64,000 nucleotides of DNA from Candidatus Thiovulum imperiosus (GTDB lineage Bacteria > Campylobacterota > Campylobacteria > Campylobacterales > Thiovulaceae), in the NCBI GenBank assembly GCA_024281175.1, contig JAMJTW010000031.1, forward strand, positions 20,100 through 84,099. The letters are read 5' to 3'. Below the pieces are notes generated by a model, which had not been told where the DNA came from, made no database searches, and saw nothing but the letters and a program-made list of their open reading frames with translations. Below are positions 8,692-38,506 of the stretch, in pieces (the first letter of the stretch is position 1; each line of letters starts with the position of its first letter). The position numbers and the translations under genes are program-made.

Positions 8692-10203
8692 TTAGTAGTT
8701 GTAAGCTACTTTATAATTTGGGTCGTCCTCTTCATAAGTACAGAATGGACCAGCATTTTTTAAGATAGCTTTACAGTCGTTGGAAAGGTGTCGAATTCGG
8801 AGATTTTTTCCAGCTTCAGAATACTTTTTTGTAATTCCATCTATCGCTTCAACTCCAGAAATATCCATAACTTTTGCATTTTTGAAATCAAGAACTACCT
8901 CATCAGGGTCACTTTCCAATTGGAACTGCTCATAGAAAGAGGTAACAGAACCAAAAAAGAGTGGACCTTCAAATTCATAAATCTTTCTACCATCTTCAAC
9001 TCTGCTTCTGGAATAGACTCTTGCATGTTGCCAAGCAAAAACTAGAGCTGAAATTATGATACCTGTAATTACAGCAATTGCTAAATCAAAGAAAATTGTA
9101 ATGAGGGTTACAGCTACAAGGACAAAACGGTCACTATTTGGCATATACTTTATTCTATTTCCACTCTCCCACTCAAAAGTTCCAATCGAAACCATAAACA
9201 TAATTCCAACAAGAACTGCTACTGGAATTACGGCGATGAGGTCTGTTAAAACTATCACAAAAAGAATTAAAAGAACAGATGCAACAAGTGCCGAAAGTCG
9301 TCCCCAACCACCATTTGAGAAGTTGATAATAGATTGTCCAATCATTGCACAACCTGCCATTCCTCCAAAAGAGCCACAAGCCACATTTCCAACTCCTTGA
9401 GCCACACACTCCTGATTTCCACTACCTCGTTTTCCGCCCATTTCATCAAGAACTGAAAGGGTAAGAAGAGACTCAATTAGACCTACAAGAGCTACAAGAA
9501 CAGCATAAGGCAAAACCATAAGAAAGACATCTAAAGAGATTTCAAATTCTGGAATTGAGAAAGTTGGTAAAGAGCCTGAAATATCAGCAAGGTCTCCAAC
9601 TCTTTTTGTATCTAAGTCGAAAAGTAAAACTATTGCAGTAATTGTAACAATTGCAACTAATCCCGATGGAACTGCTTTTGTGATTTTTGGAAAGAACTCG
9701 ACGATTGCCATCGTAAGAAAAACTAAAGCATACATTACCCAATTTTCACCCTCAAAAAGTGGAAATTGTGCTAAAGCAATTACAATTGCAAGACCATTTA
9801 CAAATCCATACATTGCAGGTTGAGGAACAAGTCGAATGAGTTTTCCTAATTTCAGAACACCCACAAAGATTTGGAGAAGACCTGCTAAGATGGTGGTGAG
9901 AAGTATATATTGTAAAATCATCTCAGCATCAGCATCTGGAAAAAGCTCTTTCACTTCAACTCCAAGCCCAACAAGAACTACGGCAACAGCACCAGTCGCA
10001 CCTGAAATCATTCCCGCCTTTCCACCAATTAGAGCTGTAATGAGTCCTAAAATGAAAGCGGTGTAGAGTCCAACAAGTGGTGAAACTCCAGCTATAAATG
10101 AGAATGCAATCGCTTCTGGAACAAGTGCAATTGCAACAACAATTCCAGAAAGAATATCATTTTTTGCACTATGACCAATAAAAGTGTTTCTTATATTTAA
10201 CAA
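8692..10203 (-). CDS. SulP-family anion (sulfate/bicarbonate) permease with C-terminal STAS domain
   Basis: 503 aa with many TM helices. The C-terminal STAS-like block reads FEGPLFFGSV...LDFKNAKVMDISGVEAI. Confidence 0.9.
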   Translation of the reverse strand: MLNIRNTFIGHSAKNDILSGIVVAIALVPEAIAFSFIAGVSPLVGLYTAFILGLITALIGGKAGMISGATGAVAVVLVGLGVEVKELFPDADAEMILQYILLTTILAGLLQIFVGVLKLGKLIRLVPQPAMYGFVNGLAIVIALAQFPLFEGENWVMYALVFLTMAIVEFFPKITKAVPSGLVAIVTITAIVLLFDLDTKRVGDLADISGSLPTFSIPEFEISLDVFLMVLPYAVLVALVGLIESLLTLSVLDEMGGKRGSGNQECVAQGVGNVACGSFGGMAGCAMIGQSIINFSNGGWGRLSALVASVLLILFVIVLTDLIAVIPVAVLVGIMFMVSIGTFEWESGNRIKYMPNSDRFVLVAVTLITIFFDLAIAVITGIIISALVFAWQHARVYSRSRVEDGRKIYEFEGPLFFGSVTSFYEQFQLESDPDEVVLDFKNAKVMDISGVEAIDGITKKYSEAGKNLRIRHLSNDCKAILKNAGPFCTYEEDDPNYKVAYNY

Positions 10204-10244
10204 AAACTATCCTAATATTTTTTGGAATAGTAACAAAAAGATAA

Positions 10245-10305
10245 AAGAGTCTAAAAAGAAGACTCTTCGGTCGCTACCCTCCCTCAGAGTGTTCTGCCCT
10301 AAAAA
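10245..10305. repeat. GAGTC-hairpin module plus CTCAGAG module of the interspersed repeat family; possible ureG terminator
   Basis: AAGAGTCT-AAAAAGA-AGACTCTT hairpin at 10245-10267, followed on the minus strand by a T-rich run. The adjacent GGTCGCTACCCTCCCTCAGAGTG recurs at 15584-15620 and 31597-31625. Confidence 0.65.
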
Positions 10306-10472
10306 GGGGACTGACCAAATAGAGTATTTTTACATCTTAACAATTTATATGTCATTTCGAACCCTTTAGGGTGAGAAATCTTTTACATATTTGGGTAAAA
10401 GGATAAACTTCCAAGATTTCTCAATCACTTCGTTCATATCGAAATGACAAGAAAGCCTATTTGGTCACTCCC
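10306..10472. mobile_element. Full-length MITE-like (Correia-like) element, 167 bp
   Basis: Terminal inverted repeats GGGGACTGACCAAATAG and CTATTTGGTCACTCCC. Internal boxes GTCATTTCGA...GAGAAATCTT pair with AAGATTTCTC...TCGAAATGAC. Confidence 0.65.
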
Positions 10473-10478
10473 ATTTTC

Positions 10479-11069
10479 TCAATTTTCTGCAAGAACTTCT
10501 ATCCACTCTACAAGTTTTTTGATACTATCATCTCTATTTGATAAGAAGAGATAAGGCTTATTTCTTCTATTCTCTTTAACATCACTCTCCATAAATTCAA
10601 GGTTTACACCAACATAAGGAGAGAGGTCGGTTTTATTTACAATTAGGATATCGCTAAAAAGAAGACCAGCACCCTTTTTCCGTGGAATATCAGCACCTTG
10701 AGCAACATCAATAACATACATATAGTAGTCAATAAGTTCATAAGAGAAAGTTGCACTCAGATTGTCACCACCACTCTCTACAAAGATGATATCGGGATTG
10801 TATCTCTCTTCTAACTCTAAAACTTCTCGCTGATTTGCACTTATATCATCTCGAATTGCTGTATGAGGACAACCACCTGTTTCAACTCCAATAATTCTCT
10901 CGCTATCAATATCAAGATGAGATTTAAGATAGTTTGCATCTTCTGTTGTGTAGATGTCATTTGTAACAATACCAAGAGAGTATCTCTCTTTCAAGATATT
11001 TGTGAGCTGTTCAATAATGGAAGTTTTTCCACTTCCAACTGGTCCAGCTACTCCTATTTTTATGCTCAT
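10479..11069 (-). CDS. ureG: Urease accessory GTPase UreG
   Basis: P-loop GPVGSGKTS, metal motif GGCPHTAIRDD, and NKTDL. Confidence 0.95.
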   Translation of the reverse strand: MSIKIGVAGPVGSGKTSIIEQLTNILKERYSLGIVTNDIYTTEDANYLKSHLDIDSERIIGVETGGCPHTAIRDDISANQREVLELEERYNPDIIFVESGGDNLSATFSYELIDYYMYVIDVAQGADIPRKKGAGLLFSDILIVNKTDLSPYVGVNLEFMESDVKENRRNKPYLFLSNRDDSIKKLVEWIEVLAEN

Positions 11070-14170: not shown

Positions 14171-15220
14171 TTACTTTTTTAGACTCTCTTCCAAATTGTG
14201 ATGAGTAACTTTGATAGTCTCCAAAATCTCCTCTATCTCCTTTTCAGAACCACCATTTGTAAGAAGAGTATAAAGTTTCTCAATTTCTGCTCGAAGTGGT
14301 CTTGGAAAGTTTTTAGCTCCATAATCCAACATATTCAAAGCAAGATTTGCTGAAGAGTGAGAAATTTGTCTCTGAATTCCCTGAAGTGTTACGGTTGTAA
14401 AAGGCGAATTCATATAGAAAATTGTCTCATTTATCACATGTCTTAAGTAGTTTCTAAATCTTACAATTTCGTTTTCATCAAGATAGTTTAGTGCTACAAG
14501 AAAATCTTTTTTGTAAATCTTAGAAATCTTGCGAAGTTGATTGAAAGATTGAATTGAGATTTCTCTTCGTTGCTCTTTGAGTTCATCAAAAACGATTTGA
14601 CTTGCTGTTTTTCGGACATTTGCAATATGAAGATTTTGAAACATTGTTGCAAAAATTCCATTCACTTGCTGTTTTGTTGCCCCAAAGTTTTCCAGAGTCT
14701 CTTCAATTTTCTCTCTCAAATCTCTATACTCTAAATCGAAAAGTTTTCTCTCTTCGTAAATCGATTTCACTTCTGTAATCATCTCTCCAATTTGAAGAGG
14801 CGAAATCGTTTCAGAAATATAGAAACCGTTTTTCCGAATTGCTGGAAGAACTTCTTTTGTTATCCACTTTTTAAAGTCTTTTGCATTCTCTTTTTTACTA
14901 CTGAAACTTGCTGAGTAAATCCCACTCTCATTTACAAGAGTTAGCTTACCATTTCTGTCAAAAGATACACCTCCATTTGGGAGGTGTATTTTCTTATCAA
15001 TCTTTAAAATATCCTCTTTTTCGATGTGTTTAAGCATTTTATTTGTGTTTGACAAAACTCTTTTTGTTCTGGTATCAATCTTTTCATATCCTAAAATTGA
15101 AGCCACATCTTTTGCAACAAACCACAAATCTTCTGTTTTTAAATCAAGTAGAGTTCTTATCTCTTTTCCCTCAAAAAATCGAAAGTTTTCTGGCATTTTT
15201 TCTAAAAGTTTTAAATTCAT
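14171..15220 (-). CDS. BRO-N domain protein with RhuM-like C-terminal region (phage antirepressor-like)
   Basis: N-terminal LWFVAKDVASILGY and WITKEVLPAIRKNG are BRO-N hallmarks. C-terminal FQNLHIANVRKTASQIV...ALNYLDENEI parallels the RhuM-family core. Confidence 0.75.
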   Translation of the reverse strand: MNLKLLEKMPENFRFFEGKEIRTLLDLKTEDLWFVAKDVASILGYEKIDTRTKRVLSNTNKMLKHIEKEDILKIDKKIHLPNGGVSFDRNGKLTLVNESGIYSASFSSKKENAKDFKKWITKEVLPAIRKNGFYISETISPLQIGEMITEVKSIYEERKLFDLEYRDLREKIEETLENFGATKQQVNGIFATMFQNLHIANVRKTASQIVFDELKEQRREISIQSFNQLRKISKIYKKDFLVALNYLDENEIVRFRNYLRHVINETIFYMNSPFTTVTLQGIQRQISHSSANLALNMLDYGAKNFPRPLRAEIEKLYTLLTNGGSEKEIEEILETIKVTHHNLEESLKK

Positions 15221-23172: not shown

Positions 23173-23853
23173 ATGTTTTTAACAAACCGGGAACAAGAGA
23201 AGTTGATGATCTATACAGCGGGGAAACTTGCTCTGGAGAGAAGAGATAGGGGTTTGAAGCTAAATTACCCTGAAGCAGTTGCAATTCTCAGTAGTTTTAT
23301 TCTTGAGGGTGCTAGAGATGGAAAGAGTGTAGCTGAACTTATGGTTGAAGCTACAAAAGTTCTAAGTGCTGATGAGGTTTTAGATGGAGTAGCAGAGATG
23401 CTTCAGATGGTTCAGACTGAAGCTACTTTCAACGATGGAACAAAACTTGTTACGGTTCACAATCCAATTCCTGTAACAAGTTCTATTGCTGGAGAGTATA
23501 TTATTGATGAGGGTGAAATTGAGCCAAATAGCGGAAAAGAGACTCTCTTTTTAGAAGTTACAAACAGCGGAGATAGACCAGTTCAAGTAGGTTCTCACTA
23601 CCACTTTTTTGAGACCAATTGTGCATTGCAATTTGATAGAGAGAAGGCTTATGGAAAACGGTTAAATATTCCAAGTGGAACATCAGTTCGATTTGAACCA
23701 GGGTCGAGCAAAGAGATATCTCTTATAGATTTTGGTGGAAAGAGATATATCAGTGGGTTTAACGCTCTTGTTGAGGGAGATCTTGAAAGTTCAAAAGAGA
23801 TTGCTATGGAAAGATTAGAGAAATTTTTAGGAGAGTGTGATGAAAATAGATAA
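23173..23853 (+). CDS. ureA: Urease gamma-beta fusion subunit (UreA in Helicobacter nomenclature)
   Basis: The N-terminal 100 aa read [14 protein letters not shown]...TVHNPI (gamma). The following GEI...[17 protein letters not shown]...FEPG is beta. Confidence 0.95.
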
Positions 23854-25528
23854 AAGAAAATACGCTTCAATGTATGGACCAACTGTTGGAGATAGATTTA
23901 GATTAGCTGATACAGAACTTTTTGCTTGTGTTGAGAAGGATTACACAATCTATGGAGAGGAGAGCAAATTTGGTGGTGGAAAAACTATCCGAGATGGAAT
24001 GAGCCAATCTCCAACAGCAGGAAGTGAAGTTTGCGACCTCATCATCACAAATGCAGTTATTATCGACTACACTGGAATTGTAAAAGCTGATATTGGAATT
24101 AAAGATGGTAAAATTGTAGCTATTGGAAAGAGTGGAAACCCAAATAATACAGATGGAATTACAGAGGATTTAGAGATTGGAGCAAATACAGAAATTCTCT
24201 CAGCTGAAGGAAAAATTATTACAGCTGGTGGAATAGATGCTCATATCCATTTTATCTCTCCAGGGCAAATTGATGAAGCTCTACACAGTGGTGTAACAAC
24301 AATGATTGGTGGAGGAACTGGTCCAAATACAGGAACAAATGCAACGACTTGTACTCCAGGGGAGTTTAATATCTCAAAGATGATAGAGTCTGTAAACGAC
24401 CTTCCCCTAAACTTTGGATTTATGGGAAAAGGGAACTCTAGCAACTACGAAACTTTAGCTTCTCAAATTCGAGCTGGAGCGATGGGATTAAAACTTCATG
24501 AAGATTGGGGTACAACTCCAAAAGCGATAGATACTTGCCTAAAAGTTGCTGATGATTTTGATGTTCAAGTTGCAATTCACACAGATACTTTAAATGAGTC
24601 TGGATTTGTTGATAATACTGTAAATGCTTTTAAGGGCAGAACAATCCACACTTTTCACTCTGAAGGTGCAGGAGGTGGTCACGCTCCAGATATTATGAAA
24701 GTTGCTGGACTTGAAAATATTCTCCCATCATCTACAAATCCAACTCTACCATACACAAAAAATACAATAGAAGAGCATCTCGATATGCTTATGGTTTGTC
24801 ACCATTTAAGTCCAAAAATTCCCGAGGATGTCAGTTTTGCAGAGAGCCGAATTCGAGGAAAAACTATCGGTGCTGAAGATGTTCTTCACGATATTGGAGC
24901 TATCTCAATGACAAGTAGCGACTCTCAAGCAATGGGTAGAGTTGGTGAAGTTATTACAAGAACTTGGCAAGTTGCCCACTCTATGAAAGTTCAGAGAGGC
25001 TCTTTAGAGGGAGATAGAGAGTATAACGATAACAATAGAATTAAGAGATATATCGCTAAATATACGATAAATCCTGCTATCGCTTCTGGAATAGATGAGT
25101 ATGTTGGAAGCGTAGAAGTTGGAAAAATAGCTGACTTAGTTCTCTGGAATAGAGCTTTTTTTGGTGTGAAACCTGAAATTATTATCAAAGGTGGATTTAT
25201 CGTAACAGCTATGATGGGAGACTCTAATGCATCTATTCCAACTCCTGAACCAAATTTTTATAGAGATATGTTTGGAAGTTTAGGAAAAGCTGGAGCTAAA
25301 ACAAGTGCTATTTTTGTGGCAAAAGAGAGTCGAGAAGTAGATACAGACAAAGAGGTTTTGGTTGTGAAAAATACGAGAAATATCTCAAAAAAGGATATGA
25401 AACTAAACAGTTTTATTGGAGATATTAGAGTTAATCCTGAAACTTATGATGTTACAGTAGATGGTGAATTGATTGAGTCAAATTATATGACGGAACTCCC
25501 AATGGCTAGGAGATATTTCTTGTTTTAG
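23837..25528 (+). CDS. ureB: Urease alpha subunit (UreB in Helicobacter nomenclature)
   Basis: [28 protein letters not shown] and [13 protein letters not shown] active-site blocks. Overlaps ureA by 17 nt. Confidence 0.95.
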
Positions 25529-29772: not shown

Positions 29773-30465
29773 TCAGAGTGGTGTTTCCAATTTCCACTTT
29801 AGTTGGTGGTAAGTTCCACCAAATTCCATTCCAAACTCTTTTCCCGATGAGGTAAGTTTCCAAATTCCATCCTGCTTTTCTTGGAAGCCCTTTCTTTCCA
29901 GAAGCAAGTTCGCTTCTCTTCCTGAAATTCCGTGTAGCTTTCCAAGTTCTGTTGGGAGGAAGTAGGTTTGGGAAAAGTCGAGTTGGAAGAGAGAAGAGAT
30001 ACTTTTTTCACCTAAAAGCTTTTGGAGAAGTAGTAAGTGAAAAGGTTTTGTCTCTTCGAGAAATTCCACGAGCTTTTTAGCTTCTTCATTTTGGGAAAGG
30101 AGTTCTGAAAAGTTTGGAAGTTCTGAAATGGAGTAACTTCCTGTTTTTCTGATAGAGGGTAATACCTCTTCCATAATCCACTCTTCAATTTTTTCCGCTT
30201 CTGGCATTTCAGATTTTATAATAAGTCGCCAAACATCAGGTTCTAAAATTAACTTTGTTTGTGGATGTAATTTAAAGGTCACTGTATTAGTGACCTTATC
30301 AAATTCTTGCCATTCTACGGGTTTTTTGCAATGAACTTTTATCGCATTTGCAGTTTTTTTATACTCTAAAAGCTCTGCTACATCTTTTGCAACAAACCAA
30401 TCTTTGCCATCTATTAACAGAATTCTGACTTGAAAACTGTTAAAATTTTTAGTTATTAGGTTCAT
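29773..30465 (-). CDS. BRO-N / KilAC-type phage antirepressor-like protein
   Basis: DWFVAKDVAELLEY and WIMEEVLPSIRKTG (BRO-N). The C-terminal LPTELGKLHGISGREANLLLERKGF...WKLTSSG resembles KilAC. Confidence 0.75.
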   Translation of the reverse strand: MNLITKNFNSFQVRILLIDGKDWFVAKDVAELLEYKKTANAIKVHCKKPVEWQEFDKVTNTVTFKLHPQTKLILEPDVWRLIIKSEMPEAEKIEEWIMEEVLPSIRKTGSYSISELPNFSELLSQNEEAKKLVEFLEETKPFHLLLLQKLLGEKSISSLFQLDFSQTYFLPTELGKLHGISGREANLLLERKGFQEKQDGIWKLTSSGKEFGMEFGGTYHQLKWKLETPL

Positions 30466-30576: not shown

Positions 30577-30759
30577 ATGTCAGAAAAATATTCAACAACT
30601 TTTTACACAACTAAAGATATGAAGAGAGAGGCACTAAAAGTTGCTAAGAAAAAAGGAATAAATACTTTAAATGGTCTTTTGAATTTTCTAATTGCCGATT
30701 TTATAGAAAAAAATAGAGAGCTTTTAAATAGAGAAGAGTCTCACAGAAACAGACTCTAA
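30577..30759 (+). CDS. Small basic protein, possibly ribbon-helix-helix-like
   Basis: 60-aa ORF with a GGAG RBS, divergent from the BRO/KilAC gene. Its last 8 codons lie inside a GAGTC-hairpin module at 30735-30757. Confidence 0.4.
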   Translation: MSEKYSTTFYTTKDMKREALKVAKKKGINTLNGLLNFLIADFIEKNRELLNREESHRNRL

Positions 30760-31054
30760 ACGAATATGAAGAGTGTTTTTAAGATTTCTCACATTCGTTC
30801 GAAATGACAAAAGGGGGAAAACCCACTCTGAACGAATGTGAAGAGTCCAAAAGAAAGACTCTTCTTTCGTAAAACTTCCTTAGAGTGGAGAAACATGTCA
30901 TTTCGAACCCTTTAGGGTGAGAAATCCTTTTCAAGTTTTTAAGATTTCTCACATTCGTTCGAAATGACAAAAACGGGCGGAAAGAGAGAAAGACCAGCCC
31001 CAAAAGGGGGCTGGAGTTAGTTGAAGATTTCTCGTATTCGCTCGAAATGACAAG
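30760..31054. repeat. Cluster of four GTCATTTCGA/GAGAAATC repeat units with a 38-bp perfect duplication
   Basis: GTTTTTAAGATTTCTCACATTCGTTCGAAATGACAAAA occurs at 30775-30812 and 30935-30972. GAGTC hairpin at 30840-30864. Related units at 30896-30926 and 31023-31054. Confidence 0.7.
30994..31014 (-). terminator. GC-rich hairpin downstream of the caspase-like gene
   Basis: CCAGCCCC-AAAAG-GGGGCTGG, followed on the minus strand by a T-rich tract (TCTTTCTCTCTTTCC...GTTTTTG). Confidence 0.5.
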
Positions 31055-31070
31055 ATAAAATTGTTAAAAA

Positions 31071-32366
31071 TCATAAATCTTGAACACAGACGGCGAAAGT
31101 GCTATTAGTCTGGTTATCCCAACCGCCATCACCGTACTCGAAACTGACAATCCATGAACTAGAAATATCTTTATAGTATTTTTTTGAAGTCCATGTCCAA
31201 GTTGGAACAAAATGTGAAATTTCACTTTCAACAAATTTATCATTGTGTCTCTTATGCTTACTTGCATCAAACCATTGACTCCATTTTTCATAAGTTTCCC
31301 ACTCATGAAAATAAGTCATCAAACTCTTTGCTTCATCTCGGCTTGGAAGTCTCCAATTTGAATATCCAGAAAGATTTAAGTTTTCACAATACCTCATCGC
31401 CTCTTGCCAAGTGTAATATTCTCTGTTCTTCTTTTGCCACATTAAATCTGTTTTCTTATCAACAAAAAAATCTCTGTAAATCTCATAACGGTATATTTCC
31501 CAATACCCAAAGTATCCCAAAACCAAAAGAAGAGAAGCAATAAGATTGAAAAGAATTTGCTTTTTTGGAGACCTATTGACTTCGCTCTCATTTCTACTCT
31601 GAGAAAGCGTAGCGACCGAAGAGTCTCTTTTAGGTTCTTCGCTCTGCTCAGAAACGGTTTCCCCTTTTCCATTCAGATAGAAATCGTCATAAAGTTTCTG
31701 ATGAACCCAAGGAACTTGAAAATTATTTGTCTCTTCAATTACACCTTTTACGGTCTTTTTCAAGACATCATCAATTTTCGCACCTTTTGAAGATATATGC
31801 TTTAGAAGATTTTTTGTAAAAACTCCATTTCGCTCTTTTGGATTATCAAGAGCTATCTGGTCTGGACCAGTTGCAAAAGAGATGATAGATTGGTGGGTAA
31901 AACTCATATTTGGATTTGCCAAACCTCGATGAATATTTGCACTTCTACCGCCTCTACTTTTGATATTCTTCTCAAATGGATTATCTCGACTAGAGTCCAG
32001 AAAGAAGAGGTTCAATTTCGCCTTACTATCCTCCATTCGGTTCTGAATAAAATCGAGTGAAATTGCTGAGTCTGGAATTTCATCTTCCGAAAGAATTTCA
32101 GCATCGACTGGAACAAGAAAGTTCCTACCGAGATATTGCATTCCGTGTCCAGCATAAAAGAAGAGAGAAATCTCAACTCCTACGGAATTTTGCCCAAACT
32201 CTCGAACCAGCCTCTTAAACTCTTTCTGCTCTAAGTCTTCGCCATAAAAAACCGTGAAATCTAAACTTTCTAAAGCCTCTTTCATATCTCTACTATCGTT
32301 TATCGGTTTTTTAAGCTTTGCTATATTTTCATACTCTCCGTTTCCGATTACAAGAGCTGTTTTCAT
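31071..32366 (-). CDS. Caspase-like (peptidase C14) domain, TM helix and DUF1566 (Lcl C-terminal-like) domain protein; Ser at the catalytic Cys position
   Basis: ALVIGNGEY, FFYAGHG (His74) and FFLDSSRDNPF (Ser126 where DxCR is expected). TM helix ILFNLIASLLLVLGYFGYW. C-terminal DLMWQ...YTWQEAMRYC...WRLPSRDEAKSL. Confidence 0.85.
   Translation of the reverse strand: MKTALVIGNGEYENIAKLKKPINDSRDMKEALESLDFTVFYGEDLEQKEFKRLVREFGQNSVGVEISLFFYAGHGMQYLGRNFLVPVDAEILSEDEIPDSAISLDFIQNRMEDSKAKLNLFFLDSSRDNPFEKNIKSRGGRSANIHRGLANPNMSFTHQSIISFATGPDQIALDNPKERNGVFTKNLLKHISSKGAKIDDVLKKTVKGVIEETNNFQVPWVHQKLYDDFYLNGKGETVSEQSEEPKRDSSVATLSQSRNESEVNRSPKKQILFNLIASLLLVLGYFGYWEIYRYEIYRDFFVDKKTDLMWQKKNREYYTWQEAMRYCENLNLSGYSNWRLPSRDEAKSLMTYFHEWETYEKWSQWFDASKHKRHNDKFVESEISHFVPTWTWTSKKYYKDISSSWIVSFEYGDGGWDNQTNSTFAVCVQDL
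31597..31655. repeat. Repeat-family fragment embedded in frame in the caspase-like gene linker
   Basis: CTCTGAGAAAGCGTAGCGACCGAAGAGTCTCTTTTAGG...TGCTCAGA. The 18 nt GTAGCGACCGAAGAGTCT match the reverse complement of 10259-10276 exactly. Confidence 0.6.
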
Positions 32367-34462
32367 TCTAAAATCACTCTGACATCTACAACTTGAATTC
32401 CATTTTCATAGGCAAAAACAGGGTTCAATTCAATATCTGAAATTCCTATTCTACTCTCTACAACTTCACCCAATTTCAAAACTGTATCTATTAAAGTTTC
32501 AATATCTCTAGGTTTCTCTCCACGAACTCCCGAAAGAATTTTGTGAAGATGGCTAGATTTGAACATTCGGATAGTCTCCTCTTTTGAGAGTGGAAAAGAG
32601 CGGAATGAGACATCATTGAAAACTTCAACCATTGTTCCGCCAACTCCAGCCATAATGGTTGTTCCAAATTGTGGGTCTCTTCTTGCTCCTAAAATCACTT
32701 CAGTTGAAGGAGTTGCTGTTTCAGAAATTTCAATTCCAGAAACTTCAGCACTGGAATCAAACTCTTTCGCATTTTCTAAAATTTTTTCAAACTTTTCAGA
32801 AACCTCATCAGCACATTTAACACCTAGAAATACACCTCCAGCATCGCTTTTATGGAGAATATCTTTTGATACAACTTTCATAACAACTGGAAAGCCTATC
32901 TCTTCAGAAAATGCCACCCCACTCTCTGGAGTTTCTGCTACAAAACTTTTTGGATTTGAGATTTCCAAAAGGTCTAAAACCTCTTTTCCCTCATTTTGAA
33001 GTAGTGAAAATCGTCCCTCACTTTTTGCAACTTTTACAATTTCAGAAATCTTTTCGGTAGGTATCTCTTTTCGAATTACTTCCTCTCTACTTCTCAAGAT
33101 ATTTCTATAAAATCTAAACATCGCACCAAGAGAAGAGACCGCCTCATTTATCTCTTCAAAGATAGGAATTCCCCGTTTTCTCATATTTAAAACTCTCTCT
33201 TCCATCTCTTTCCCACCAACAAATGAGAAGACAACAGGTTTTGGAAATCCTCTTTTAAACTCTTCAGAAATCATCTCTTCTATCTCTTCGGCACTAAATA
33301 CTGCTACTTCTGTTCCAAGAACGATGATTGCATCAACTTTGGGGTCTTCAAAGGCGAGTCTTAAAGTTTTCTGATACGCCTCTCTATCAGCACCACCTGT
33401 AATATCAATTGGGTTTTTGAAAGAGCCACACTCCGAAGCCACTGCACCAACATCACCATATCGACCACTGAAATCATCATCGAGAAGTTCAACATCCCAC
33501 TTTTCAGCCGAGTCAGTCGCCAAAGCACCTAAACCTCCACCATTTGTAATGATAAGAGTTTTCAGACCTTGTGGCATTGGAGAATTGGAAAGGAATTGAC
33601 TCCAGTGAACTCCTCTTCCCATTGTGAAAACTCGAAGAACTCCACTCTGTTTCATAATTTCGTTAAAGAGTTTGTCAGAACCTGCTAAAGCTCCAGTATG
33701 AGAAGCTACGGCTAAAGCACCTCTTTTTGAAGTTCCAGATTTAAGAACAATAATGGGTTTCTTTCTTGCAACTCTTTTAAAACTCTCTAAAACTCTTTCA
33801 CCACCCTTAATTCCCTCGATATAGAGAAGAATAGTTTTTGTGTATGGGTCATTTTCTAAGTAGTCCAAAATATCAGCTTCATTTAAATCAGCTTTATTTC
33901 CAAGAGAGACAATTGCAGAAAGACCGATATTTTCAACTTCTGTCTTTCCAATCATTGCTACTCCAATCGCACCGCTTTGAGTAATTACAGCAACACTACC
34001 TTTTTGAACTGCTTTTGAACCAAAAGTAGCATTTAGCGATGAGGTTCTGGAGTAGATACCAAACATATTTGGACCAAGAAAACGGAGATTTCCAGCTTTT
34101 GCAACAGCAACTATCTGTTCTTCCTCTTCGATATTTCCAATTTCTCGAAATCCAGAAGTGATGATTTCAGCAAATTTTACTCTTTTCTGAACAAGTTCTC
34201 GAACAACAGAAAGGACAAGCGAGTGAGGAACAACTACAACTGCAAAATCTATTTCAGACTCTATCTCCAAAACAGATTTTGAAACAGATAAGCCTAGAAT
34301 TTCTCCACCCTTTGGAGAGATTGGATAGATTTCTCCCTTGTATCCGCAAGAAATTACATTTTGTAAAATTTTATATCCAAGTTTTTTCTCATTTGAAGAA
34401 GCACCAATAACAGCAACAGATTGTGGTTGAAAAAGTTGTTTCATACTTTCCCTTTTTGTCAT
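32363..34462 (-). CDS. ADP-forming acetyl-CoA synthetase family protein (fused CoA-binding, ligase-CoA and ATP-grasp domains)
   Basis: N-terminal PQSVAVIGASSNEKKLGY CoA-binding motif, SCS-like central domains, and a C-terminal ATP-grasp region. Overlaps the downstream gene by 4 nt. Confidence 0.85.
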   Translation of the reverse strand: MTKRESMKQLFQPQSVAVIGASSNEKKLGYKILQNVISCGYKGEIYPISPKGGEILGLSVSKSVLEIESEIDFAVVVVPHSLVLSVVRELVQKRVKFAEIITSGFREIGNIEEEEQIVAVAKAGNLRFLGPNMFGIYSRTSSLNATFGSKAVQKGSVAVITQSGAIGVAMIGKTEVENIGLSAIVSLGNKADLNEADILDYLENDPYTKTILLYIEGIKGGERVLESFKRVARKKPIIVLKSGTSKRGALAVASHTGALAGSDKLFNEIMKQSGVLRVFTMGRGVHWSQFLSNSPMPQGLKTLIITNGGGLGALATDSAEKWDVELLDDDFSGRYGDVGAVASECGSFKNPIDITGGADREAYQKTLRLAFEDPKVDAIIVLGTEVAVFSAEEIEEMISEEFKRGFPKPVVFSFVGGKEMEERVLNMRKRGIPIFEEINEAVSSLGAMFRFYRNILRSREEVIRKEIPTEKISEIVKVAKSEGRFSLLQNEGKEVLDLLEISNPKSFVAETPESGVAFSEEIGFPVVMKVVSKDILHKSDAGGVFLGVKCADEVSEKFEKILENAKEFDSSAEVSGIEISETATPSTEVILGARRDPQFGTTIMAGVGGTMVEVFNDVSFRSFPLSKEETIRMFKSSHLHKILSGVRGEKPRDIETLIDTVLKLGEVVESRIGISDIELNPVFAYENGIQVVDVRVILE

Positions 34463-34476
34463 TAGTTTAACAAAAG

Positions 34477-35544
34477 TTACATCTTTTGAAAAATCTCTTT
34501 CACTTTTTTAAAATCTAGAATTTGTTCAAAATCATCTCCAAGAGCATTAGAAAGAGGTTTTGAGTGAATTACAGTAGAGTTGTAAAGTTTTTGATACACC
34601 TCATCATCTAAATCTTTTGTAATACCTTTTGGAACTTCTATTCCCTGCTTCTCTGCCATTTCAAGAAATTCAAGATACTCTTTTGGATAGAACTCCTCCA
34701 TTGCATTCATTGTTATGCAGTTTCCAATACAGTGGTGAGTTCCCAAAACTACGGAGAGACCAGCCGAAAATGGGTGAACTACTCCAACAAAAGAGTTTGC
34801 AATTGCACAACCTCCAAGATAAGAAGCAACCATCATCTTCTCTCGATTTTCATCACTCATCATATCTTCACTATGAAAAACTTCTCGAACAAGTTCTATC
34901 GCTTGTTGTGAGTATGCATCTCCAATCGCATTTCGATATCTACCATTTAAAGACTCAATGCAGTGAATATAAGTATCCATTCCAGTATAGAAATACTGCT
35001 CTTTCGGTACACTTTTTGTAAGACTTGGGTCTAAGATAAGTTGATCGTAAATTGTAAAGTCGCTGTTCATTCCAAGTTTCAAACCACTTTTTGAGTTTGT
35101 CATAACACAAGTTCTACTCGCTTCAGCACCTGTTCCAGAAACAGTTGGAACTCCAATTTTATAAACTCCTGCCAATTTTACTAAATCCCAACCTTGATAA
35201 TCTTCAGCCTTTCCACCATTTGTAAGTAGATTTGAAACAGCTTTTCCAGTATCAAGAGTTGCACCACCACCAATTGAGACTATGGCATTTGGAATACCTT
35301 TCTGAAGCTCCAAAACTCTATCTCGAAATCTATCTATATCTTCTGTTTTTGGCTCATCTGTTGTATCAACATAAAAAACCTCATCACCATCTTTTAACTC
35401 TATTTCTAAATCTCTATTTTGAAAATAGTGGTCTATAAAATAGAGGATATATCCATTTTCTCTTTTTGCTTCTAGTAGTTTTGGAAGCTCTTTTATTGCA
35501 CCTTTTCCAAATATGTAATTTCCAACATTTTTTGAGTTGTTCAT
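34477..35544 (-). CDS. Iron-containing (group III) alcohol dehydrogenase family protein
   Basis: SIGGGATLDTGKAV nucleotide motif and His-rich metal site (YIHCIESL; VVHPFSAGL..GTHHCIGN). Confidence 0.85.
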   Translation of the reverse strand: MNNSKNVGNYIFGKGAIKELPKLLEAKRENGYILYFIDHYFQNRDLEIELKDGDEVFYVDTTDEPKTEDIDRFRDRVLELQKGIPNAIVSIGGGATLDTGKAVSNLLTNGGKAEDYQGWDLVKLAGVYKIGVPTVSGTGAEASRTCVMTNSKSGLKLGMNSDFTIYDQLILDPSLTKSVPKEQYFYTGMDTYIHCIESLNGRYRNAIGDAYSQQAIELVREVFHSEDMMSDENREKMMVASYLGGCAIANSFVGVVHPFSAGLSVVLGTHHCIGNCITMNAMEEFYPKEYLEFLEMAEKQGIEVPKGITKDLDDEVYQKLYNSTVIHSKPLSNALGDDFEQILDFKKVKEIFQKM

Positions 35545-37219: not shown

Positions 37220-38506
37220 ATGAATATATTTTCAACTACTGATAGCGATTTTACCGATAAATTTGAAGAGATTTTAGGTCGAGGAAAGATGGATATAGAC
37301 GGTGTCACGGAGGTTGTCTCTTCTATTTTAAAATCTGTTAGAGAAGATGGAGATAAAGCCCTATTTCAAGATATTGAGAAGTTTGATAAGTGGAAACCTG
37401 AAAAGAGTGATGATTTAATAATTTCCCAAGATGAAATGAGAGCTGGATTTGACAGACTCTCTCCAGACCTTCAGAAAGCTCTTCGAGTAGCGTATAGTAG
37501 AATTGAAAAATATCATAAACAGCAGATGCCAAAAAGTTGGATAGATACAGAGAGTAGTGGAAATATTTTAGGACAAAAAGTTACACCTATTGAAAAAGCT
37601 GGACTCTATATTCCAGGAGGAAAAGCTATCTATCCATCTTCTCTACTAATGAATGCAATTCCTGCAAATGTCGCTGGAGTTAAAGAGATAGTTGTTTCAT
37701 CTCCAACACCACTAAATGAGGTTAGTGATATTCTTCTTGGTGCTGGATATATCTGTAACATTTCAGCTATCTATAAAGTTGGTGGTGCTTCAGCAATTGG
37801 AGCTATGGCTTATGGTACAGAGACAATACCAAAAGTTGATGTAATTACAGGTCCGGGAAATATCTTTGTTGCTACAGCTAAAAAACTTGTTTTTGGAGAT
37901 GTCCAAATTGATATGATTGCTGGACCGAGTGAGATTGGTGTGATTGCAGACAAAACAGCAAATCCAAATCATATTGCGATAGATTTACTATCTCAAGCTG
38001 AACATGATGAGATGGCAAGTTCTATTCTGATTACAGACTCACAAACTCTTGCTGATGAGGTTTCTAAAGAGGTGGAAATTTGGCTTCAGAAACTATCTCG
38101 AAGAGAGATAGCGGAAAAGTCCATTGTTGAGAGAGGTGCTATTATCGTAGTAAAAGATTTAGATGAGGCAATTTCACTTATGGATAGAATTGCTCCTGAG
38201 CATCTTGAAGTCGTAACAGAAAATCCATTCGATTTGTTGCCAAAAATCCAAAATGCTGGAGCGATATTTTTAGGAAAATATACACCTGAAGCGATTGGAG
38301 ATTATGTAGCTGGACCTAATCACACTCTTCCAACAGGTGGAAGTGCTAAATTCTTTTCACCTCTCTCTGTTGAACACTTTTTAAAGAAAAGCTCTATCAT
38401 CGCTTTTTCAAAAGAGGGGTTAGAAGAAGTTGGAAAAGATGTGATTGTTCTTGCTGAAACAGAGGGACTTGAAGCACATGCTCTATCTACAAAAGTGAGA
38501 TTGTGA
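37220..38506 (+). CDS. hisD: Histidinol dehydrogenase
   Basis: SQAEHDE and [15 protein letters not shown] motifs over the full length. Confidence 0.95.

Follow-up and report, generated by a model that had tools for sequence, protein, structure and literature searches.

The locus analysed here lies in a stretch of 64,000 nucleotides (nt) of Candidatus Thiovulum imperiosus DNA (assembly GCA_024281175.1, contig JAMJTW010000031.1, positions 20,100 to 84,099 of the forward strand), which is referred to below as the window and has a G+C content of 34%. The gene under study, referred to as the query, is an open reading frame (ORF) on the minus strand at 31071..32366, whose 431-amino-acid (aa) product begins with MKTALVIGNGEY and combines a caspase-like domain, a transmembrane helix and a C-terminal Lcl_C domain, with a serine at the position of the catalytic cysteine. 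Its features are listed below, with the source of each assignment in brackets.

31071..32366, minus strand: pseudo-orthocaspase gene, 431 aa, caspase fold, transmembrane helix and Lcl_C domain (ORF list, sequence, Pfam)
31677..32363, minus strand: Peptidase_C14 domain (caspase/hemoglobinase fold), residues 2-230, predicted to be cytoplasmic (Pfam, PDB matches, AlphaFold2)
32145..32147, minus strand: codon 74, CAC, the retained catalytic histidine of the FFYAGHG block (MALT1 alignment)
31989..31991, minus strand: codon 126, AGT, serine at the catalytic-cysteine position of the LDSSRD block (MALT1 alignment), one transversion away from TGT
31503..31562, minus strand: single predicted transmembrane helix, approximately residues 269-288, QILFNLIASLLLVLGYFGYW (hydropathy, AlphaFold2 helix 268-296)
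31083..31463, minus strand: Lcl_C (DUF1566) C-type-lectin-like domain, residues 302-428, predicted to be extracytoplasmic (Pfam)

A first-pass annotation, made from the sequence alone, had read the N-terminal part of the protein as a peptidase C14 domain and the C-terminal part as a DUF1566 domain, and both assignments were borne out by profile searches, so that membership in the Peptidase C14 family with a caspase fold is confirmed. The Pfam profile Peptidase_C14 (PF00656) matched over positions 2-233 of 233 with 116.9 bits against a cut-off of 21.4 (E 1.5e-33), and it did so in a single block, the C-terminal remainder of the protein being taken up by a linker, the transmembrane segment and the Lcl_C domain (PF07603, formerly DUF1566; residues 302-428, 69.3 bits against a cut-off of 34.9, E 4.5e-19). 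In an AlphaFold2 model based on 52 homologs, the caspase domain was predicted mostly with a local distance difference score (pLDDT) above 90, followed by a disordered linker (residues 240-266, approximately), a long helix (268-296) and a C-terminal Lcl_C domain of moderate confidence. The top match of this model in the PDB, found with Foldseek, was the paracaspase MALT1 (E 3.5e-16), which was also the top PDB match by sequence (phmmer, E 2e-13). When the Lcl_C ectodomain was compared with the PDB by sequence, no solved structure was found, the sole match being a spurious one to ARIH2 (E 0.02).

The catalytic dyad was assigned from the phmmer alignment to MALT1, in which the query block FFYAGHG falls on YYAGHG and the query block FFLDSSRD on FLLDMCRK. 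This pairing of blocks identifies His74 as the catalytic histidine and places Ser126 at the position of the catalytic cysteine, as had been claimed in the first-pass annotation, whose codon AGT at 31989-31991 was also correct. Moreover, Asp24 and Asp124 of the query align with both aspartates of the acidic S1 pocket by which MALT1 binds arginine. The MALT1 counterparts of His74, Ser126, Asp24 and Asp124 are presumably residues 415, 464, 365 and 462, as reckoned with the alignment offset.

The nucleophile column was then analysed in an alignment of the query with its 120 best database matches. Cysteine occupies this column in 118 of the 121 sequences, and serine in three, namely the query, an identical database copy of it and one relative fused to leucine-rich repeats (LRR); His74 and Asp124 are invariant in all 121. 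The closest relatives carry the block LNLFFLDSCRDNPFEK, which differs from that of the query solely by the change from C to S, and on this alignment Ser126 is derived, not ancestral, and arose by one T-to-A transversion. The paralogs use TGT or TGC as the nucleophile codon. Among the 44 columns that are conserved at 90% or more, the query departs from two, through N20K and C126S, where the median for the family is one, and it keeps Asp24 and Asp124, both of which stand in such columns; with just these two deviations, general erosion of the domain is not apparent. Of the two residues found in catalytically competent C14 peptidases, the query therefore has the histidine of the (Y/F)AGHG block and lacks the cysteine of the LD(A/S)CR block, and its substituted dyad (His-Ser), together with the retained acidic S1 pocket, places it among the pseudo-orthocaspases as these were defined previously (PMC6426788).

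As a single base separates the Ser126 codon from a cysteine codon, an error of sequencing or assembly had to be considered, and the first-pass annotation had itself named this as grounds for withdrawing its proposal. The exact query protein was found on 23-25 contigs from separate Joint Genome Institute (JGI) samples plus the NCBI record, so that 23 assemblies or more share it, and the four loci retrieved from independently assembled samples do not differ at any nucleotide of the gene. These loci fall into three haplotypes, with about 98 differing sites in 13.3 kb, all of which carry the identical caspase gene. With the gene unchanged across so many assemblies and across the three haplotypes, Ser126 is no sequencing error; an artefact is effectively refuted, and we regard its probability as negligible. 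In two of the four retrieved loci, about 98 sites depart from the window sequence; they lie in hisD, in atpB and in the gene of a fused ADP-forming acetyl-CoA synthetase (ACD) upstream of the query, with few elsewhere and none in the stretch formed by the caspase gene, a small ORF and an anti-repressor (Ant)-like gene downstream of it. Since all strain differences lie outside this stretch, strain variation gave no selection signal for it. A cysteine allele of the query is absent from its 90% cluster, which has one member.

The differences between the strains are patchy. Seventy to 72 of them lie in the ACD gene (32363-34462; 2.1 kb) and 20-27 in hisD (37220-38506; 1.15 kb covered) when loci L002 and L003 are compared with the window, and about 7 kb of genes neighbouring these patches is identical between strains. 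This suggests that the ACD and hisD patches are imported recombination tracts.

In order to see how common such substitutions are among relatives, the caspase domain was searched with phmmer against 1.84 billion representatives, which gave 34,692 matches, and the dyads of the best 150 of these, at 50% clustering, were scored. All of the other single-domain proteins in this set (101/101) have a His-Cys dyad. The set also contains 47 proteins with tandem caspase domains; 15 of them have His-Cys in both domains, and 32 have a substituted domain; 30 of these 32 also possess an intact His-Cys domain. Among the substituted dyads, His-Ser is the most frequent (10 proteins). Dead domains in this part of the family are thus normally fused to a live one, and a stand-alone His-Ser domain is rare.

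Dyad-substituted caspase homologs have been described before. Among 9,994 bacterial orthocaspases, 858 (approximately 9%) were found to be substituted and were named pseudo-orthocaspases, with a conserved acidic specificity pocket; the same survey classed CFLAR as "Pseudo" in its Table S1 (PMC6426788). These proteins resemble the query in their substituted dyad, in the retained fold and acidic S1 pocket, in being presumed inactive and in the C-terminal interaction domains to which they are often fused. They differ in that their dyads are mainly Tyr-Ser, Tyr-Asn, Tyr-Ala or Phe-Ser and that they form old, conserved lineages in Cyanobacteria and Alphaproteobacteria (Klemencic et al. 2019, PMC6426788), whereas the query has a single, apparently recent substitution to His-Ser and is a campylobacterote protein, putatively membrane-anchored, with an Lcl_C ectodomain and a place in a multi-paralog cassette family. 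A closer parallel for the dyad is the Trypanosoma brucei metacaspase TbMCA4, the one tested C14 protein in which the histidine is kept and serine replaces cysteine; it shows no activity on peptide libraries, and autoprocessing returns in its S219C mutant, yet the protein works as a virulence factor and undergoes processing by an active paralog (PMC3220528). It shares with the query the C14 fold, the His-Ser dyad, association with the membrane and the presence of active paralogs, and it differs in being a eukaryotic, calcium-dependent, lipid-anchored parasite virulence factor with a p10 region and without a lectin-like domain. From this precedent and from the chemistry of the caspase dyad, the query is most likely proteolytically dead.

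Two further proteins can be compared with the query. MALT1 (PDB 3V4O, 8V4X and other entries) has the ALxIGN, YAGHG and LDxCR blocks in common with it, as well as an acidic, arginine-specific pocket. It differs in having the catalytic cysteine and flanking death and immunoglobulin domains, and it is a soluble protease in human signalling that becomes active on dimerisation. The C-terminal domain of the Legionella adhesin Lcl belongs to the same Pfam family as the ectodomain of the query, has a C-type-lectin-like fold and is extracellular; Lcl itself is a secreted trimeric adhesin with a collagen-like stalk that binds host glycosaminoglycans (PMC11162425). Carbohydrate recognition and/or trimer formation have been proposed as the generic role of the Lcl_C domain, and the surface lysines of Lcl are not conserved even within Legionella (PMC11162425); assembly into trimers and the binding of sulfated glycans are known for Lcl alone. 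The combination of C14 and Lcl_C domains is common in databases (23 of the 120 best query matches), and we found no treatment of it as an architecture in the literature searched. The suggestion of the first-pass annotation that a caspase homolog with an altered nucleophile and this domain combination was new must therefore be narrowed: a dyad-substituted bacterial homolog is an already known kind of protein, and the novelty is that of a stand-alone membrane His-Ser protein with an Lcl_C domain, in an apparently undescribed cassette family of Thiovulum-like bacteria.

Regarding topology, the query shows a sole Kyte-Doolittle peak above 1.6, a 19-mer at approximately 269-288, and hydropathy revealed no N-terminal hydrophobic segment or signal sequence; the first strand of the caspase fold stands at the very start of the protein, and the closest relatives begin likewise. 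The flanking charges (+4/-2 before the helix and +3/-4 after it) favour an N-in orientation, so that the caspase domain is likely inside and the Lcl_C domain outside, which agrees with the single helix and the lack of a signal peptide noted in the first-pass annotation. The accompanying idea of a sensor outside and a caspase fold inside probably holds for the query and is not general in its family. Two other members, P0003 and P0005, have the predicted topology of the query. P0008 carries a lipoprotein-type signal, which would place both of its domains outside, and in P0002 and P0009 both a signal sequence and a transmembrane segment are lacking, so that this layout, as far as it can be predicted, is not universal.

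The genes and elements surrounding the query are the following.

34477..35544, minus strand: Fe-dependent alcohol dehydrogenase, first gene of the same-strand run (Pfam Fe-ADH, ADH_Fe_C)
32363..34462, minus strand: fused ADP-forming acetyl-CoA synthetase (ACD), upstream of the caspase gene (Pfam CoA_binding, Succ_CoA_lig, Ligase_CoA_2, ATP-grasp_5)
30994..31014, minus strand: GC-rich hairpin with a T-rich tail, likely terminator of the alcohol dehydrogenase, ACD and caspase unit (terminator scan)
30775-30817, 30935-30977 and 31018-31060, no strand assigned: three copies of a 43-nt repeat with the 27-nt core AGATTTCTCACATTCGTTCGAAATGAC (repeat search)
30577..30759, plus strand: 60-aa ORF divergent from the Ant-like gene, weakly similar to Arc-like (ribbon-helix-helix) repressors (phrog_582)
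29773..30465, minus strand: 230-aa Bro-N / anti-repressor (Ant)-like protein (Pfam Bro-N, phrog_130)

The ACD domains are complete to the C-terminus, and the TGA stop codon of the ACD gene overlaps the ATG of the caspase gene by 4 nt (ATGA). This overlap had been noticed in the first-pass annotation, which placed the ACD gene downstream; it lies upstream, on the 5' side. A search of the ACD protein against 185k representative genomes returned only relatives with at most 49% identity, from unrelated phyla, and no close relative of the locus. On the 3' side, the caspase gene is followed by the likely hairpin terminator (8-bp stem with seven G-C pairs, 57 nt past the stop codon), the three 43-nt repeats, the 60-aa ORF on the opposite strand and the Bro-N gene on the same strand. 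The first-pass annotation had described this neighbourhood as a mobile-like islet with a BRO/KilAC gene and a repeat cluster. The islet is confirmed, and the observation extended, by the recurrence of the same order of caspase gene, small ORF and Ant-like gene at several loci, and the Bro-N domain is supported by its Pfam match (E 1.8e-21); the KilAC label was not supported by Pfam, which gave no match to the C-terminal half of the protein even at E <=10, and PHROG Ant profiles cover that half. The match to phrog_130, "anti-repressor Ant", extends over residues 1-224 (E 8.5e-40). The 60-aa ORF has no Pfam match, a weak match to phrog_582, "Arc-like repressor" (E 0.0084), and 54% identity to its counterpart in the cassette of locus L026.

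The immI-type module of phage P22 pairs the arc repressor with the ant anti-repressor. The neighbours of the query resemble it in matching Ant over the full length and an Arc-like repressor weakly, and in forming a divergent pair; they differ in having no surrounding prophage, in being present in many chromosomal copies, in their swapped N-terminal domains (Bro-N, KilA-N, pRha) and in their repeated linkage to caspase-sensor genes. A phage-borne origin of the cassette is not supported: in IMG/VR, the caspase alignment reached at best a match with 36% identity, and a search with the Ant protein found no relative encoded there.

The repeat region 30775..31060 is highly structured (fold z-score -5.8). 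The 43-nt repeat has no further copies in the window, and it recurs at the 3' junction of paralogous cassettes. Its 27-nt core is found at 30782-30808, 30942-30968 and 31025-31051 of the window, at 8229, 8312 and 9693 of locus L024, at 10887 of L026 and at 4566 of L056; these eight copies, which are all those in about 135 kb of this genome, lie at cassettes, on the 3' side of caspase-sensor or Ant genes. The exact 27-mer core, with sharp edges, is also intergenic in three unrelated IMG/VR contigs (L058-L060; G+C contents of 57%, 40% and 41%). An array resembling clustered regularly interspaced short palindromic repeats was rejected for the 43-nt repeats on account of their irregular spacings (83 and 160 nt) and of the pairing of the copies into hairpins. 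A search of the locus with Rfam gave nothing at the gathering score, and the sole match at E <=1 was at chance level.

The acetolactate synthase encoded in the window is 85% identical to that of Thiovulum sp. ES and 72-80% identical to its counterparts in other Campylobacterales, which marks the host as a Thiovulum-like campylobacterote. This host carries at least four intact and at least three decayed caspase-sensor genes. P0003, a cysteine-bearing caspase with a transmembrane helix and an Lcl_C domain (733 aa), is encoded on contig _015 of sample 3300049408, in which the window locus is on contig _001; P0119, a cysteine-bearing caspase-LRR protein, comes from sample 3300049405, which also has the window locus. 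P0008 and P0124 are cysteine-bearing lipoproteins with caspase and Lcl_C domains, belong to the same 90% cluster, and P0124 occurs in sample 3300049399 together with P0003. The ectodomain of the query is 67% identical to that of P0003, 62% to that of P0008 and 28% to that of P0005, whereas its caspase domain is closest to that of P0005, from another sample (69%), followed by P0003 (50%) and P0008 (38%). Judged from these identities, the query gene is a mosaic.

Beside P0003, P0119, P0008 and P0005, the caspase-sensor gene is followed by an ORF of 60-69 aa on the opposite strand and then by an Ant-like gene of 230-274 aa; including two of the decayed copies, a small repressor-like ORF and an Ant gene lie downstream of every intact paralog examined (four of four) and of those two. 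The small ORFs are of two types. The Ant-like protein of the window is 61-74% identical to those beside the other caspase paralogs, and full-length comparison of those from the window, L013, L024 and L026 with one another gives 56-77% identity. A single Ant C-terminal domain is present in the 64 kb of the window, and one lies within about 1.3 kb downstream of 4/4 intact caspase paralogs of this genome, which argues that the adjacency exceeds what the density of such genes would produce. The Ant-like family is itself expanded, with at least six paralogs (P0383-P0502 set) recorded on contigs of up to 500,602 nt, which is also the length of the contig that holds the window; of these, P0388, P0389 and P0402 were confirmed on that contig; they share the C-terminal half (73-86% identity) and carry a Bro-N, KilA-N or pRha domain at the N-terminus. 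At least nine Ant-like genes are present in Thiovulum sp. ES. We found no description of a caspase / small-repressor / Ant cassette family in the literature searched.

The decayed copies also lie at Ant modules. Locus L026 contains a broken caspase-Lcl_C gene (9636-10766), consisting of a 48-aa C14 fragment and a 181-aa Lcl_C ORF, which is flanked by a YafQ/RelB toxin-antitoxin pair on one side and by another pair of genes, HTH_3 and Bro-N, on the other. On the contig of the window, directly upstream of a small-regulator/Ant pair, stand an 80-aa LRR fragment in L055 (4268-4510) and an uncalled transmembrane-LRR remnant in L056 (3477-4544); a third Ant module, in L057, adjoins a PemK toxin module without a caspase gene. 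Taken together, the paralogs, the mosaic domains and the decayed copies at Ant modules indicate that the family evolves by duplication, domain shuffling and decay.

Several other observations were made on these islets. The Ant-like genes are scattered among housekeeping genes, and mostly each is preceded by a small helix-turn-helix or ribbon-helix-helix gene. Genes of toxin-antitoxin pairs (YafQ/RelB, PemK) and small genes for GIY-YIG or T5orf172 proteins are found in the caspase/Ant islets (L026 9047-9569, L057 5759-6269, L013 6694-6990). DUF4384 proteins of 447-478 aa are encoded directly upstream of caspase-sensor genes in L024 (4568-6004, with a 4-nt overlap) and L017 (3570-4913), a position that is occupied by the ACD gene in the window. 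Between samples, a 2.8-kb segment with nuoA-D is inverted (L027 1-2842 against L026 2796-5637), with a breakpoint about 250-360 nt upstream of P0119, and in L027 the truncated nuoD frame extends as far as the start codon of the caspase gene; the inversion may be a genuine rearrangement at the edge of the cassette or an artefact of assembly.

A second case of serine at the nucleophile position was found in a cluster of caspases with a transmembrane helix and LRR from a related organism (approximately 30% G+C), in which serine and cysteine alleles are more than 99% identical. P0015, P0121 and P0122 represent the serine allele (AGT), which is found on 12 or more contigs; the cysteine allele (TGT) is represented by P0123 on one contig. 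The two alleles (L017 5001-6734 against L021 879-2612) differ by 10 substitutions, all of them within nt 352-436 of the gene, an 85-nt patch around the nucleophile codon, and there are no differences in the remaining 1,649 nt of the gene and in 2.7 kb of flanking DNA. An outgroup contig of 95-96% identity (L028 3401-4115) has cysteine and the cysteine-type patch at nine of the 10 sites, and the serine allele differs from it by about 11% inside the patch and about 4% elsewhere. Because the patch is more divergent from the outgroup than the rest of the gene, it looks as though a more distant donor supplied it through short-tract gene conversion, or else the single cysteine contig is a chimeric assembly. 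A metagenome scan for the donor with IUPAC patterns of the serine and cysteine patches gave one extra contig, a cysteine outgroup, and no donor. A diversity-generating retroelement was rejected as the cause of the patch, as the changes are not adenine-specific. This case has no direct bearing on the query, in which Ser126 is an isolated change; it indicates that serine alleles recur in the family and can predominate.

The interpretation to which we give about an even chance is that the query protein acts as a catalytically dead partner or decoy of its active paralogs. It is a pseudo-orthocaspase with an intact caspase fold, predicted to be cytoplasmic, that has lost the nucleophile cysteine (His74/Ser126), and this domain is joined by a disordered linker and one predicted helix through the inner membrane to a probably extracytoplasmic Lcl_C domain. 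Its gene is one member of a birth-and-death family of caspase-sensor genes in a Thiovulum-like campylobacterote. Presumably unable to cleave substrates, yet folded, with an acidic S1 pocket and with an ectodomain close to those of the active P0003 and P0008, it might work in trans as a non-catalytic partner or decoy by pairing with an active paralog, or it might instead compete for an outside ligand or an inside substrate; in either case a potentially self-harmful protease would be tuned or damped. A role in trans is proposed because the tandem proteins of relatives fuse dead and live domains in cis. An analogous arrangement is that of cFLIP, a catalytically dead caspase-fold paralog that modulates active caspase-8 by pairing with it. 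The likeness lies in the pairing of a dead with an active paralog, for which the tandem proteins of the relatives, with a dead and a live domain in one chain, provide a counterpart in cis; the difference is that the comparison is one of analogy, with homology at the level of the fold, and that pairing would still have to be assumed for the query. TbMCA4 with MCA3 forms a comparable dead/active pair for a decoy model.

Several points weigh against this proposal. The serine lineage is known from one undiverged sequence, without diverged orthologs by which purifying selection could be gauged, and an intact domain is equally expected from a very recent neutral loss. The three or more broken copies in this genome raise the prior for a simple loss of function. 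A need for dimerisation has yet to be proven for bacterial orthocaspases, so that the partner logic is by analogy, and a stand-alone His-Ser dyad, being atypical of the family, could be transient rather than functional. Finally, the topology is a prediction from a hydropathy peak and a weak charge bias.

The main alternative is early loss of function, in which a redundant paralog took a single T-to-A hit and became a neutral or mildly advantageous null with no regulatory role; we consider this a credible explanation, if not one to be expected. It accords with the three or more decayed caspase-sensor genes beside Ant modules (L026, L055, L056), with the single nucleotide that separates AGT from TGT, with the lack among the matches of a diverged serine-bearing ortholog that would be a sign of long-term retention, and with the His-Cys dyad of all 101 other single-domain relatives, as if dead stand-alone copies vanished. 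Against it can be set the full-length reading frame, in which 42 of 44 conserved columns, the S1 pocket, the transmembrane helix and the ectodomain are kept, the fixation of an identical gene in at least 23 assemblies and three haplotypes, its translational coupling to a housekeeping-type gene, and the predominance of the serine allele in the related clade (at least 12 contigs against one), a hint that serine can be favoured. As the serine lineage consists of a single undiverged sequence, a decoy and a recent null allele are not separable by computation. The first-pass annotation had offered a pseudo-protease scaffold or a serine-nucleophile variant, and of these the former is best supported by precedent. 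Cysteine-to-serine mutants of caspases serve as catalytically dead controls, and the dyad lacks a third residue that could activate a serine hydroxyl, so a protease in which His74 and Ser126 cleave peptide bonds within a caspase fold seems very improbable, even with His74, Gly75, Asp124, Arg127 and the other active-site blocks unchanged. An exchange of cysteine and serine nucleophiles is known in another clan, between picornain and chymotrypsin, as cited in the study of TbMCA4, whose authors knew of no caspase-fold enzyme with a serine nucleophile and in whose hands activity returned when serine was changed to cysteine (PMC3220528). Moreover, the tally of the best 150 of 34,692 matches contains no conserved clade of serine-bearing single-domain proteins.

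A different question is what the whole family does; a conflict system, surface recognition in veil-forming cells and envelope remodelling are possibilities. It is rather unlikely, in our judgement, that the caspase / small ORF / Ant cassettes are anti-phage or abortive-infection modules, of which the query would be a disarmed copy, with an outside signal bound by Lcl_C or LRR switching on a cytoplasmic death protease. The cassettes do form small islets among housekeeping genes together with YafQ/RelB, PemK, GIY-YIG, T5orf172 and phage-type regulators, and their turnover, domain shuffling and number of paralogs are typical of conflict genes. Searches of PADLOC-DB v2 gave a weak, partial match to "caspase" (E 1.4e-9, 35.7 bits, profile positions 5-158 of 453) and weak matches of a neighbour to PDC-S69 and PDC-S05, but no known defence-system partner, and the NCBIfam profile for the EACC1-associated caspase (NF047832) scored 50.4 bits against a cut-off of 140. 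Nor does the model fit the lack of close relatives on viral contigs in IMG/VR, the one paralog that would be wholly extracytoplasmic and the others without a transmembrane segment, which do not suit a sensor outside and a killer inside, or the Lcl_C domain, otherwise known as an adhesin-type glycan binder. More doubtful still is a recognition or conflict system linked to arc/ant in which the nucleophile codon would be toggled between cysteine (armed) and serine (disarmed) by short-tract conversion among paralogs, in low-GC Thiovulum-like bacteria, the disarmed forms being cFLIP-like decoys that share the ectodomain of the armed ones; it is raised because the serine and cysteine alleles of the LRR clade differ solely by the patch of 10 substitutions.

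Regarding the significance of the locus, dead enzymes that regulate live paralogs are recurrent in eukaryotic cell-death signalling and almost unexplored in bacteria. With His-Ser and His-Cys membrane caspases that have a near-identical outside domain in one genome, the locus would be a compact natural test case for the partner or decoy proposal; a Cys-to-Ser pseudo-orthocaspase alone is an expected kind of object, maybe a gene starting to decay. Thiovulum is an uncultured, veil-forming giant sulfur bacterium, to which surface recognition and regulated cell death may plausibly be relevant.

Two other features of the window may be mentioned. A second ORF with a Bro-N domain is located at 14171-15220 on the minus strand (349 aa); its Bro-N-like region (14810-15175) is 33% identical, and it is without the shared Ant C-terminal half. 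Additionally, the Rfam family of the Helicobacter 5' ureB small RNA has a match at 23989-24278 on the minus strand (97.7 bits, E 2.4e-24), which lies inside the gene of the urease alpha subunit (23837-25528, plus strand) and antisense to it; this match may reflect mere conservation of the coding sequence.

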